NCBI GenBank assembly: GCA_030632095.1 | Contig: DAOVJU010000001.1 | Span: 1-32,520, forward strand | From: Chlorobiota bacterium | Lineage (GTDB): Bacteria; Bacteroidota; Bacteroidia; Bacteroidales; B39-G9 | Reading direction: 5' to 3' | Length of the DNA stretch: 32,520 nucleotides | Part shown: piece by piece, positions 29,766-31,614 of the stretch | Numbering within the stretch: position 1 is the first letter of the stretch | How the letters are laid out: every line of letters begins with the position of its first letter | Program-made: the position numbers and the translations under genes | The notes under the pieces: model-generated | What the model was told of the DNA's origin: nothing | Databases searched by the model: none | What the model saw: the letters and a program-made list of their open reading frames with translations, nothing else

Positions 29766-30056
29766 CTAATCTTCTACACCATAAACAAACTCATCAACCT
29801 TTTTTACATAAGCATAAAGCCAATAATGAATATGCTTGGTGTAATCTGTTTCATCCGAATAACTTTTTTTAAAATCTGCAGTCATGATGGAATAAATGCG
29901 TCTAGCTAATTGAAACACATCAGGATCAATGTTGTAAATAAAGACTTCTTTAAGCTCTTTTCTTAGTTCACTATCTTTAATTGAGATCAATATTTTTTTT
30001 ACAACTTCACAATTATTGGATAACTTGCGGAATATATCTTCATAATCATTAACCAT
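29766..30056 (-). CDS. hypothetical protein; possibly the detached C-terminal part of the upstream AbiC-like gene
   Basis: 96-aa ORF. Its frame stays open upstream to 30140, overlapping the end of ORF 30112..30567 in the +1 frame. Confidence 0.4.
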   Translation of the reverse strand: MVNDYEDIFRKLSNNCEVVKKILISIKDSELRKELKEVFIYNIDPDVFQLARRIYSIMTADFKKSYSDETDYTKHIHYWLYAYVKKVDEFVYGVED

Positions 30057-30111
30057 TTGAACTAAATGATGAATTCTAATACTTAGATTTTTTACTCCAG
30101 CGAAATCATTG

Positions 30112-30567
30112 TTAAGCAGGTATTTTATAGCCTTTATTCCTTATATTTCCATTAACCCTGGTACTTGGAGTAAAGTTATCTATGATTTTTTCAGCAAGTT
30201 CTAATTGTCTATAAATAACATTAGTAATCCTGGTTGTTTTAAATTCTTCACGCTGCAATTTAAGTTCTTCACGTTGCAATTTAAGTTCCTCTAATTGAGT
30301 ACCTAACTCCTTTCGTTGTACTCTCAATGCCAGGAAGAACAACAACACTCCAGCAAAAGCCCAGACAGAACCAACCAAACCACCAATAAAATCTCCAGCT
30401 TGTCCGGTTTCTTCCAACAAAATATTATTAGGCCCCAAAGCTTGGTAATCCCTTCTTAATTGAAATATAAAAATGAATAAGATTATTAAACCGGTTACAG
30501 AGAATATGAGAGCGAACAGGCCAATTATAAACTCTGAAGGACTAATGTTTTTGAAATAGTTTTTCAT
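30112..30567 (-). CDS. 2-TM plus coiled-coil protein resembling the N-terminal half of the putative abortive-infection family putAbiC
   Basis: 151 aa. TM1 IIGLFALIFSVTGLIILFIFIF, then GQAGDFIGGLVGSVWAFAGVLLFFLALRVQRKELGTQLEELKLQREELKLQREEF. This matches the GD.FGG...(TM)...Q..EL..QR.EL pattern I recall for that family. Confidence 0.55.
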   Translation of the reverse strand: MKNYFKNISPSEFIIGLFALIFSVTGLIILFIFIFQLRRDYQALGPNNILLEETGQAGDFIGGLVGSVWAFAGVLLFFLALRVQRKELGTQLEELKLQREELKLQREEFKTTRITNVIYRQLELAEKIIDNFTPSTRVNGNIRNKGYKIPA

Positions 30568-30605
30568 GTAAATACATTAATTAAAGCCATAAGCATTTTG
30601 GTTTT

Positions 30606-31259
30606 TTAATTACTCTTCAATAACTGTTTATACTCTTCTCTAAGCAGTGTAACCAATTTTTTATAGCTATATATTTTGGTGTCTCTTATCTCAATATATA
30701 CCTTTCTAATAAGCAAAAACATAAAAATTGATGCTATAAGAATTATTAATCCTATTATATAATCTACTCGAGTGACTTTAACAGGAGGGTCAATATAGTT
30801 CATAAAAGTGAATATAATCACTGTAACAACTCCTATTACAATACTTATAAAAGTCATATCCGATTTTCTATCATTAATTTTTTGATTTATTTCATCAATT
30901 AGAGATAAAATAATATGAGGGTTGTTAATCTTGTTATTTGATAGGTATTCTTTCAATTTTTTACATTGCACTTTACTAATTGGGTTGGGAACTTCATTCC
31001 AAGACATCTTAAAGGTATATTTATACTCTTTGTAAATACGGTTAAAGCTATAATAGATATGAGATAAGTATCCAAGAATTAAGGTAAATAATAATAAATA
31101 AGATATTAGCAATTTTTTGAAAAACAATATTGCTAAAATCGACCATACCAAGACTATAAAAAATGAAATGATAATAAACCTTCTTCGTTCATATTTAGGT
31201 AAAAGTGCAGTAGATGAGAAATTAGAATCGTATTCCTTAAGGAGATCTTCAGTAATCAT
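30606..31259 (-). CDS. 4-TM membrane protein of unknown function
   Basis: 217 aa. Two TM helices (res ~27-70), a soluble loop of about 60 aa, then two more TM helices (res ~127-185). No motif I recognise. Confidence 0.6.
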   Translation of the reverse strand: MITEDLLKEYDSNFSSTALLPKYERRRFIIISFFIVLVWSILAILFFKKLLISYLLLFTLILGYLSHIYYSFNRIYKEYKYTFKMSWNEVPNPISKVQCKKLKEYLSNNKINNPHIILSLIDEINQKINDRKSDMTFISIVIGVVTVIIFTFMNYIDPPVKVTRVDYIIGLIILIASIFMFLLIRKVYIEIRDTKIYSYKKLVTLLREEYKQLLKSN

Positions 31260-31411
31260 TACAGTGCAGCAATCTGATTTAATTTGCTTCTTTTGATAAA
31301 AGCGTCAATTATGTTCTTAATGGTCTTTTTGTCCTCATTATTCATTTTTTCTACTTCCTTGAATTGTTGTAGCAGTTCAGTATCTTTCAGGGCAGCCCTT
31401 GCCTTTTCGTC
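31259..31411 (-). pseudogene. start-less remnant resembling the C-terminal tail of an XRE-type regulator
   Basis: Open frame DEKARAALKDTELLQQFKEVEKMNNEDKKTIKNIIDAFIKRSKLNQIAAL then a stop. No usable start codon except an internal Met. Its TAA shares one base with the ATG of the 4-TM gene (TAATG). Confidence 0.35.
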
Positions 31412-31614
31412 TTAATGCCATACATTAAAAAATCGTTAGCCGTTTGCTTTTCTATTTTACCTTCCTGCATCATTTTAACCTGGTTAAGGTTGCTTTGCAG
31501 TTCAGCCAAAGATTTTTTATCAGGCTCTTGTATTTTAACATAATTCAGTGTTTTTATAAACTCCCAAAAGGCATGGAATTTATTATCGCTTATATTTAAA
31601 GTCAATTGCTTCAT
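31387..31614 (-). CDS. small antitoxin-like protein (family not identified)
   Basis: 75 aa. MKQLTLNISDNKFHAFWEFIKTLNYVKIQE...LNQVKMMQEGKIEKQTANDFL resembles small Bacteroidota proteins that usually precede RelE/ParE-type toxins. No such toxin follows here. Confidence 0.45.
   Translation of the reverse strand: MKQLTLNISDNKFHAFWEFIKTLNYVKIQEPDKKSLAELQSNLNQVKMMQEGKIEKQTANDFLMYGIKTKRQGLP

Follow-up and report, generated by a model that had tools for sequence, protein, structure and literature searches.

The abortive-infection proteins AbiC and AbiP are grouped as AbiC/P, AbiC having two transmembrane (TM) helices and AbiP one (PMC13064643). The membrane anchor of AbiP is required, and its trigger is a major tail protein (PMC13064643). 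The models by which such proteins are recognized, putAbiC of Pfam (PF16872, an 80-position model with a gathering score of 22 bits) and the AbiC and AbiP models of PADLOC, key on the C-terminal domain and therefore miss proteins that carry the same N-terminal module with other C-terminal domains.

The locus compared here with these systems lies in a window of 32,520 nucleotides, the whole stretch of DNA that was analysed, from a Chlorobiota bacterium. The source genome is a MAG of 560 contigs, 77.7% complete and with ~30% GC. The earlier note had described on its minus strand an operon of small genes in which a 217-aa membrane protein was paired with a 151-aa AbiC-like protein in a possible defence module. 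All of the minus-strand ORFs it listed are present where it placed them; the locus is not a new two-protein defence system. The best explanation, with a probability of about 0.6, is that of a decaying locus, in which a stand-alone AbiC/P-related gene of ~268 aa has been split by a 1-nt insertion, its flank has suffered a deletion and the 217-aa protein is not a conserved partner. The features are given below, where P0002 is an intact relative of 268 aa and L003 is the closest related locus.

31614-31387, minus strand: ORF of 75 aa, antitoxin-like (ORF listing)
31426..31614, minus strand: antitoxin-homologous part, residues 1-63 of the 75-aa ORF; Bacteroidota RelB-type family of 67-70 aa
31387..31425, minus strand: 12 foreign codons (MYGIKTKRQGLP) and a stop, fused to the antitoxin; homologues never cover residues 64-75
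31259..31411, minus strand: remnant of an XRE-family regulator, 50 C-terminal codons (tblastn against the XRE protein of L003)
31259-30606, minus strand: ORF of the 217-aa membrane protein (ORF listing)
30606..31259, minus strand: the same as an orphan protein, four predicted TM helices with a helical loop of ~55 residues between TM2 and TM3
30567-30112, minus strand: ORF of 151 aa (ORF listing), the last stretch to 30112 being in the wrong frame
30141..30567, minus strand: N-terminal part of the AbiC/P-like gene, residues 1-142 (P0002 alignment and N-module HMM)
30244..30285, minus strand: 21-bp in-frame tandem duplication by which the stalk gains one LKLQREE heptad; the 7 added residues fall precisely in a gap of P0002
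30141-30144, minus strand: frameshift site, one extra base within ATAA relative to the intact homologue
29766..30140, minus strand: C-terminal part of the AbiC/P-like gene, 124 codons, open from 30140, 47.5% identical to P0002 residues 135-255
30056-29766, minus strand: ORF of 96 aa (ORF listing), starting at an internal ATG at 30056
29727-29754, no strand assigned: terminator stem-loop with T-runs, 12 pairs in the stem, 4 of them GC

The 151-aa and 96-aa ORFs, which had been read as separate genes, are on these alignments the two halves of a single gene of ~268 aa with a 1-nt insertion between them. P0002 aligns with 99% of the joined reading, the identity being 60% (phmmer, E 2.6e-86), and the DNA alignment with L003 has a lone 1-nt gap, at 30141-30144. 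The frames flanking the shift align to P0002 up to residue 134 and from residue 135 on, respectively, with 72% identity before the shift and 47.5% after it. Programmed +1 frameshifting at ATA-AGG was considered and rejected, the site having no slippery context and the intact homologue no shift. A single pseudogene is the appropriate annotation for the two ORFs.

The 151-aa protein contains two TM helices, a GDFIGG motif and an LKLQREE-LKLQREE stretch. Its N-terminal module (N-module) consists of TM1 (about residues 13-37), a short outside loop, a glycine-zipper TM2 (about residues 58-81, G58xxxG62xxxG66xxxA70) and a charged LKLQREE stalk. Hydrophobic peaks are located at residues 19-37 and 63-81, with 10 K/R within the 40 residues following TM2, and the AF2 model of P0002 (pLDDT 66.2) has helices at 10-40 and 48-125. 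The protein thus carries the membrane anchor of the AbiC/P group, with two TM helices as in AbiC and its remaining part outside the membrane. A resemblance to the N-terminal half of putAbiC had been noticed before, and it holds for the N-module. Searches with phmmer against PF16872-carrying proteins gave E-values from 7.7e-27 (the best, P0003) to 1.6e-11, and an HMM made from the N-parts of 17 putAbiC-type proteins, where a 2-TM / GDxxGG / QRxELKLQREEL module precedes the PF16872 domain, scored the 151-aa ORF at 88.8 bits (E 1.4e-26) over residues 13-115. Judged from these scores, the likeness is true homology, limited to the N-module; the PF16872 domain itself is absent. The shared TM/coiled-coil module could be a generic membrane anchor. 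In scans of all ORFs against Pfam, NCBIfam, PHROG and PADLOC, the sole match above threshold was that of this module to the phage protein family phrog_8999. The N-module is present in 46 of 400 Bacteroidota genomes (~12%) and in several other phyla, with a patchy distribution. Across phyla it is found fused to putAbiC, to a helical domain of the window type, to beta-rich domains, or to none.

The C-terminal half is predicted to be a helical domain other than putAbiC. In relatives, PF16872 sits at residues ~203-321; neither the 151-aa ORF, the 96-aa ORF nor the joined 269-aa reading matches it, even at E<=10, and a six-frame search of the whole genome with PF16872 gave nothing at the locus. The close relatives P0002, P0004, P0005 and P0006 are also devoid of the domain, which P0003, P0007, P0009 and P0012 carry at 48-86 bits. 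The PADLOC models of AbiC (PDLC02343) and AbiP (PDLC02351) match none of the window ORFs, the joined reading or its subfamily, while the PF16872-bearing relatives match AbiP (E 5e-12 to 9e-8) and two of them also AbiC (E 3e-5 and 6e-6). The putAbiC and defence-model searches that the earlier note had proposed as a check recognized none of the proteins of the operon. Remote homology of the C-terminal half to putAbiC was rejected as well, with an hhalign probability of 0.1% and at most 5.4 bits against an HMM of 17 putAbiC-type C-halves; because of these two values, the seemingly conserved columns F212 and R225 of the MAFFT alignment are treated as chance. Foldseek searches of PDB with the low-confidence models (pLDDT 57.5 for the 217-aa protein and 66.2 for P0002) returned generic helical bundles alone, at E>0.1, and thus no informative fold.

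The 217-aa protein is all-helical in its AlphaFold model, with helices at about 22-46, 48-78, 135-156 and 164-186. The four predicted TM helices had already been proposed and agree with this model; a Kyte-Doolittle scan gives four in the relative P0015 and three in the 217-aa protein, where the first two merge. As also proposed, it belongs to no recognizable family, without a match in Pfam, NCBIfam, PHROG or PADLOC. Only two relatives, P0015 (30% identity) and P0016 (29%), turned up in a set of 1.84 billion representative proteins, and searches of genome contigs and metagenome contigs gave no further loci of the family. Both relatives are on contigs of less than 1 kb, with no AbiC-like neighbour in view. 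In the 400 Bacteroidota genomes, the family is represented by nothing beyond two TM-only matches at E~7e-4, in genomes devoid of the N-module. The pairing of a 4-TM with an AbiC-like protein consequently failed the co-occurrence check that had been suggested for it: the N-module occurs in 46 genomes of the 400 and the 217-aa family convincingly in none, and neither of its two relatives was seen beside an AbiC-like gene. The 217-aa protein is probably a lineage-restricted orphan in the middle slot of the operon, and not a conserved partner.

Upstream, decay is evident in two more genes. The 75-aa ORF had been called antitoxin-like, and this stands for residues 1-63, which are up to 56% identical to their homologues (E 2.2e-15); it does not extend to the 12 foreign C-terminal codons, and a toxin partner is missing. 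Homologues were found in 33 of 300 other genomes of the class, nearly all of them aligning up to residue 63-64 of 75, and they end in ..FLDEL. In 8 of 9 fetched loci the antitoxin homologue is followed by a toxin gene with an overlap of 4-14 nt, and in 6 of these 8 the toxin is of an intact 107-111-aa 'GKGKSGGARVI' type, one of the others being truncated and one of a different, 96-aa type. The one toxin scanned matches RelE of Pfam (PF06296) at 30.4 bits against a cut-off of 27. An antitoxin followed by an overlapping RelE-fold toxin, as in a RelE/RelB pair, is not found at this locus; the best match to a toxin remnant at the junction covers 9 aa ('KGKG') at E 0.34, which is not significant. 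The segment 31387-31425, which includes a GC-rich hairpin at 31388-31405, is probably a deletion junction at the place of the missing RelE-type toxin gene.

The second casualty is the XRE gene. The tail of an XRE regulator whose stop overlaps the next start had been noticed from the sequence, and both parts of this observation are confirmed. The intact XRE protein of L003 (111 aa) matches the window frame by residues 69-107 alone (tblastn, E 5e-5), and the TAA that ends this frame and the ATG that opens the 217-aa gene overlap in the sequence TAATG. As the HTH_3 domain (PF01381) of the L003 protein is at residues 7-61, the window keeps the XRE tail only. The remnant has neither a start codon nor a helix-turn-helix.

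At the other end, the bidirectional terminator said to close the operon is well founded. The 12-bp stem at 29727-29754 sits between two convergent stop codons, is flanked by A/T runs on both strands and has the features of an intrinsic (rho-independent) terminator, common to a convergent immunity gene on the plus strand and the AbiC-like gene on the minus strand. Four terminator-like sites were observed against 0.6 expected in shuffles, and an Rfam scan of 29000-32520 gave a sole match, below threshold, on this hairpin. The whole lies downstream of rnhB, and its setting in an accessory island, as the earlier note had it, is real, the island being of the conflict kind. The module was not found in the 40 relatives searched, members of the same genus and family included, and in a same-genus genome the site downstream of rnhB is occupied by a different accessory gene (an Eco57I-like methyltransferase). 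Empty-site boundaries could not be defined from genomes of the same genus or family, in which rnhB synteny is not conserved. The region is likely to represent a degraded accessory locus with a C-terminal variant of an AbiC/P-like membrane protein, at a variable site beside rnhB. Because the operon is interrupted at three or more points, this genome is unlikely to possess a working module.

A history of the locus can be proposed along these lines. The ancestral operon would have begun with an XRE repressor, followed by a small multi-TM protein and finally by the AbiC-like gene, the arrangement seen in L003; since the order XRE, TM, AbiC-like has been found in two loci only, the window and L003, this operon is one that we infer. 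Its core would have been a stand-alone, membrane-anchored protein of ~268 aa, combining the AbiC/AbiP N-module with a different cytoplasmic helical domain, and its glycine-zipper TM2 probably drives oligomerization. By the positive-inside rule, the intact ancestor would have had an N-in/C-in topology, which would place the stalk and the C-domain on the cytoplasmic side. To judge by AbiP and AbiC, the C-domain would be set off by some phage product, and abortion of the infection would proceed from the membrane. In this genome, a deletion probably took both the RelE-type toxin of the neighbouring toxin-antitoxin pair and the half of the XRE gene that encodes the HTH, and the division of the AbiC-like gene into ORFs of 151 and 96 aa is probably due to a 1-nt insertion. 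It might be speculated that loss of the repressor made expression harmful and favoured the inactivating frameshift.

Other readings of the same data have to be weighed against this history. The frameshift may be an artefact of assembly in a fragmented MAG, the gene being intact in the organism and the module functional except for its regulator. The C-terminal frame, at 47.5% identity to P0002, is still free of stops over 124 codons in a 30%-GC genome, so that the break is either very recent or not real, and an assembly of 560 contigs and 77.7% completeness is consistent with a consensus error. However, the ATAA site is not a long homopolymer, and sequence errors are not rampant, given that the other long ORFs of the window (1594, 1272 and 506 aa) are uninterrupted; the truncation of the XRE gene and the loss of the toxin are, moreover, independent decay that base-calling errors cannot explain. 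An intact gene is unlikely. It is also very unlikely that the 151-aa fragment works alone as a 2-TM and coiled-coil protein, with the 96-aa ORF possibly separate from its ATG at 30056 and the split tolerated or adaptive. Complete ORFs of 152-156 aa made of the N-module and a short coiled coil do exist in other phyla (L078, L085), but these short forms might themselves be truncations, and the 151-aa ORF ends in 9 junk residues read in the wrong frame.

A three-gene membrane defence system, in which an XRE regulator and an AbiC-like protein flank a swappable small multi-TM protein, would give the 217-aa protein a role: it and the 157-aa TM protein of L003 would be analogous, fast-evolving middle components acting as sensor, immunity or pore partner. 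The window and L003 have the identical order, the same overlap of XRE stop and TM start and a short gap before the AbiC-like gene (38 nt in the window, 30 nt in L003), and each middle protein combines several TM helices with a soluble helical segment. They are unrelated to each other, homology having been rejected after BLASTP found nothing and hhalign gave a probability of 0.6%. Against this reading, such a partner is missing beside two other members of the C-terminal subfamily (L006 has none within 500 bp; L005 adjoins a TIR protein), and in 50 loci of the wider family the gene preceding the AbiC-like one is of varied kinds. The relatives of the 217-aa protein have no XRE tail upstream, L017 also having no AbiC-like start in the 144 bp downstream, and the 157-aa protein, like the 217-aa one, was not found in the 400 Bacteroidota genomes, of which 46 have the N-module. 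Such a system is thus unlikely. Finally, the membrane proteins might derive from a prophage, as holin-like proteins of lysis or superinfection exclusion and not as a host abortive-infection gene. For the N-module there is a match to phrog_8999 (E 1.9e-7) and a weak one to a 'hol-like' PHROG (E 0.007), and beside the L003 module, on the opposite strand, a CHC2 zinc-finger motif of the phage/plasmid-primase kind was seen by eye. This origin is nevertheless very unlikely: within the window the module is not flanked by genes for phage structure, lysis or integrase, a protein of 268 aa with a large cytoplasmic domain is not holin-sized, and tblastn of the 151-aa ORF gave no match in 50,697 phage records. 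A plasmid collection gave none either; in both searches a good part of the query is probably hidden by the low-complexity filter.

With the decaying AbiC/P-related gene as the preferred reading, this genome is a gene graveyard at the locus, and a 4-TM protein next to an AbiC-like one is not to be regarded as a new system. A broader proposal is decidedly unlikely: that the N-module is a portable membrane effector carried on many cytoplasmic domains, which in the lineage of the window formed a three-gene modular anti-phage unit outside the current defence-model sets. If the module were an effector and the C-domains interchangeable sensors, AbiC/P-like defence would reach further, and be more modular, than present catalogues show.

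The comparison with known systems is summarized as follows. Bacteroidota RelE/RelB type II pairs share with the window the homologous antitoxin residues 1-63; unlike them, the window has no toxin gene, and its antitoxin has lost its normal C-terminus and stop. With XRE/HTH_3 regulators that are translationally coupled to the gene after them, the L003 operon being an example, the locus shares a homologous tail and the same overlap with a membrane-protein gene, whereas the HTH_3 domain and the start codon are gone, so that no DNA-binding regulator can be made. In phrog_8999, a phage protein family of 270 positions and thus of similar length, the joined reading aligns to profile positions 16-191; adding the C-half barely changes the score (31.9 against 31.0 bits), so that the N-module alone is shared with confidence. 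Compared with the AbiC/P group, the window gene is frameshifted, and the C-terminal ~80-190 residues that define PF16872 are replaced in it by an unrelated helical domain. In its architecture, it is like lactococcal AbiC and AbiP and the PF16872 proteins, which are membrane-anchored proteins encoded by single genes, 250-350 aa long, with TM helices at the N-terminus and a helical region in the cytoplasm behind them. Its N-module is clearly homologous to that of the PF16872 proteins, themselves recognized by the PADLOC AbiP/AbiC models, and its distribution is, like that of the AbiC/P group, patchy and accessory.

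The minus-strand locus at 29766-31614 holds a variant of a known AbiC/P-type membrane protein and not a new paired system. It lies on a contig of about 31% GC from a fragmented assembly (560 contigs, completeness 77.7%). Re-reading of the window confirmed the ORF coordinates and features described in the earlier note, but the 151-aa and 96-aa ORFs, which it treated as two genes, are one. The following features are found between and including the flanking genes:

end at 29697, plus strand, 245-aa gene (ORF)
29727-29754, terminator-like stem-loop between the convergent genes, with a 12-pair stem and T/A runs on either side
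30056-29766, minus strand, 96-aa ORF
30567-30112, minus strand, 151-aa ORF
31259-30606, minus strand, 217-aa ORF
31411-31259, minus strand, start-less frame (XRE tail)
31614-31387, minus strand, 75-aa ORF
32351-31728, minus strand, rnhB (ORF)

Four terminator-like sites were observed, against 0.6 expected from shuffles.

The 96-aa frame is open upstream as far as 30140, overlapping the end of the 151-aa ORF. The two frames were joined at this overlap, and the joined reading was searched against 5.8 billion proteins. Among the matches was an intact homologue of 268 aa, P0002 (60% identity over 99% of the joined reading, E 2.6e-86). The DNA alignment with its locus, L003, contains a single 1-nt gap, the window reading AAT ATA A GGA ATA where L003 reads AAT AAT GGC ATT, which places one extra base in the window at 30141-30144. 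Identity to P0002 is 72% 5' of the shift (P0002 residues 1-134) and 47.5% 3' of it (residues 135-255). An additional LKLQREE heptad in the window is a 21-bp tandem duplication (30244-30285), opposite an exact 7-residue gap in P0002; stalk length differs between relatives by whole heptads. The extra base could be an assembly artefact rather than a true break, and the downstream frame of 124 codons, still free of stops, implies that the break is recent or else not real. However, the shift site is not a long homopolymer, the long ORFs nearby are uninterrupted, and independent structural decay is present elsewhere in the same operon. The AbiC-like gene is most likely inactive in the present genome.

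Judged from its sequence, the protein combines an AbiC/P-type membrane module with a different helical C-terminal domain. The region common to it and to homologues bearing PF16872 (putAbiC) is an N-terminal module comprising, in order, TM1, a short loop, TM2 with GDFIGGLVGSxWAxAGVxLF (spacing G58xxxG62xxxG66xxxA70) and LRxQRxELKLQREEL. PF16872 itself (80 positions) is carried by 7 of 12 homologues, the window's own ORF excluded (E 7.7e-27 to 2.8e-4), and sits in their C-terminal third, e.g., at residues 231-321 of the 344-aa relative P0003. Two HMMs, for the N-part and the C-part, were built from 17 putAbiC-type proteins, excluding the window's subfamily. The N-part HMM matched residues 13-115 of the 151-aa ORF (88.8 bits, E 1.4e-26), so that the likeness to the N-terminal half of putAbiC had been described accurately. 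The C-part HMM reached at most 5.4 bits on the window C-half, P0002, P0004 and P0005, and did not match P0006 (the last three, like P0002, being close relatives without PF16872). In hhalign, the C-halves of the window's subfamily and of putAbiC-type proteins were related with a probability of 0.1%. The PADLOC AbiP and AbiC models match the PF16872-bearing relatives through their C-halves and match nothing in the window's subfamily. Homology to AbiC/P-type proteins is thus confined to the membrane module. Neither PF16872, the family to which the protein had been provisionally likened, nor any PADLOC defence-system model matched a window ORF or the joined reading.

The N-terminal module (2-TM / FGDxFGG glycine-zipper / QRxELKLQREEL) was also seen at loci L065-L085, both in Bacteroidota and in genomes, MAGs or isolates, bearing the labels Paenibacillus, Alcanivorax, Nitrospinaceae, Latescibacterota, Woeseiaceae and Hyphomicrobiales. 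The C-termini behind it vary, most being putAbiC, some lacking a Pfam domain and some being short forms of 152-156 aa. Examples are:

L071:2965-4218, 417-aa protein without Pfam domain
L080:2950-3729, 259-aa protein without Pfam domain, tail apparently beta-rich
L078:2905-3375 and L085:2554-3012, short forms (152-156 aa)

The 217-aa protein, which the earlier note had paired with the AbiC-like protein as a possible new system, has four hydrophobic helices. Family scans gave no match, and a word-indexed search returned only the protein itself. When 1.84 billion representatives were searched in full with HMMER, two relatives emerged, one of 223 aa (P0015, 30% identity) and one of 177 aa (P0016, 29%), each on a contig below 1 kb; no XRE tail lies upstream of their genes within these contigs. 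At L017, the locus of one such relative, no AbiC-like gene start occurs in the 144 bp downstream, the corresponding gap in the window being 38 bp. In L003, the closest AbiC-like locus, an XRE gene (111 aa, HTH_3) precedes a 157-aa multi-TM protein and then the 268-aa gene, and the XRE stop overlaps the start of the TM gene, as in the window. The 157-aa and 217-aa proteins have no detectable relationship. Such a partner is missing at two loci with other members of the C-terminal subfamily: only repeats lie upstream in L006, and in L005 the gene follows a TIR-domain gene. Across the wider family (some 30 loci in the sampled Bacteroidota genomes plus 21 named ones from several phyla) the upstream genes are heterogeneous. 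The N-terminal module occurs in 46 of 400 sampled Bacteroidota genomes; in the same 400, the 217-aa family is absent beyond two TM-only matches (E~7e-4) in genomes without the module, and the 157-aa protein is found in none. By these counts the proposed co-occurrence fails, and the two nearest loci conserve the slot that a small membrane protein occupies rather than any one family. The repeats in L006 (1-500) form a GC-rich tandem array of about 190 bp per copy, whose translation repeats '..LRLSFCRKPSALSA..' and which resembles REP-like intergenic repeats.

At the upstream end, the start-less frame matches residues 69-107 of the L003 XRE protein (E 5e-5), whose HTH_3 spans residues 7-61. The match begins past HTH_3, and therefore the tail is all that is left of the XRE gene; its TAA stop and the ATG of the 217-aa gene still overlap. 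A common antitoxin family of Bacteroidota includes the 75-aa ORF; matches occur in 33 of 300 other class-level genomes, nearly all aligning up to residue 63-64. In eight of nine fetched loci a toxin gene comes after, and overlaps, the gene of a 67-70-aa homologue ending in ..FLDEL; six of these toxin genes are intact, encode 107-111 aa and contain GKGKSGGARVI. The single toxin scanned scores as Pfam RelE. In the window, 12 foreign codons and then a stop follow the antitoxin sequence instead, and the junction retains no toxin (best match 9 aa, E 0.34). In the simplest reading, one deletion would have taken out the toxin gene together with the 5' two-thirds of the XRE gene, thereby fusing two adjacent same-strand modules. 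A GC-rich hairpin, AGGGCAGCCCTTGCCTT (plus strand, 31388-31405), lies in AT-rich surroundings exactly at the junction of antitoxin stump and XRE tail and may mark a deletion or recombination point. With the XRE HTH and the toxin lost and the AbiC-like gene frameshifted, the locus is unlikely to be a functional operon in this genome. The frameshift may have been favoured once the XRE repressor was lost.

The accessory-island setting is upheld, since 40 relatives, same genus and family included, yielded neither the AbiC-like nor the 217-aa gene, and a same-genus genome carries different genes downstream of rnhB (L061, G001:C80, 5421-7228), namely a 95-aa membrane protein and an Eco57I-like N6-adenine methyltransferase/restriction-type gene. 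Such a pattern is consistent with a variable conflict-gene or defence hot spot; no empty site could be delimited, synteny being poor. Other loci have comparable neighbours. In L005 (3101-5149), a distance of 268 bp separates P0006 (290 aa) from the 302-aa TIR-domain protein upstream of it, and the contig also encodes an EAD11-domain protein, a defence-island-like setting. In L007 (2221-5614), a 729-aa DNA methylase plus DUF4928 protein comes after P0003, in a defence-type neighbourhood. In L068 (1751-3801), upstream of a putAbiC-type gene there are a gene for a 286-aa XRE-HTH protein and an ORF of 120 aa, RelE/HigB-type toxin-like by eye; these are further regulator/TA genes, of different families. 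Beside the L003 operon, a minus-strand gene (1-474) has a primase-type CHC2 zinc-finger motif (..CPFHNDKTPSL.., by eye), which suggests that the intact module is carried on a mobile element.

Of the earlier interpretation, then, the AbiC-like N-terminal module and the accessory island remain, but not the paired system, putAbiC membership or a functional operon. The AbiC-like protein has 10 K/R within 40 residues after TM2, a basic N-terminus and an acidic inter-TM loop, a charge pattern that predicts an N-in/C-in topology; the stalk and C-domain would then face the cytoplasm. Zipper motifs of the form (G/A)xxx(G/A) typically pack TM helices together into homo-oligomers. The four-turn zipper in TM2, kept across phyla, may drive homo-oligomerisation. 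The predicted structures had low confidence and were not informative. By analogy, partial homology and context make a single-gene abortive-infection protein, anchored in the membrane and triggered by phage, the most likely form of the intact ancestor, with a sensing domain unlike putAbiC. AbiC contains two TM helices, against one in AbiP, and the parts of the two outside the membrane superimpose; AbiP, which binds nucleic acid, depends on its anchor and has a phage major tail protein as its trigger (2026 review, PMC13064643). The membrane module of AbiC/P-type proteins is homologous to that of the window protein, whereas putAbiC proteins carry PF16872 in their C-terminal third, where the window protein has a different helical domain.
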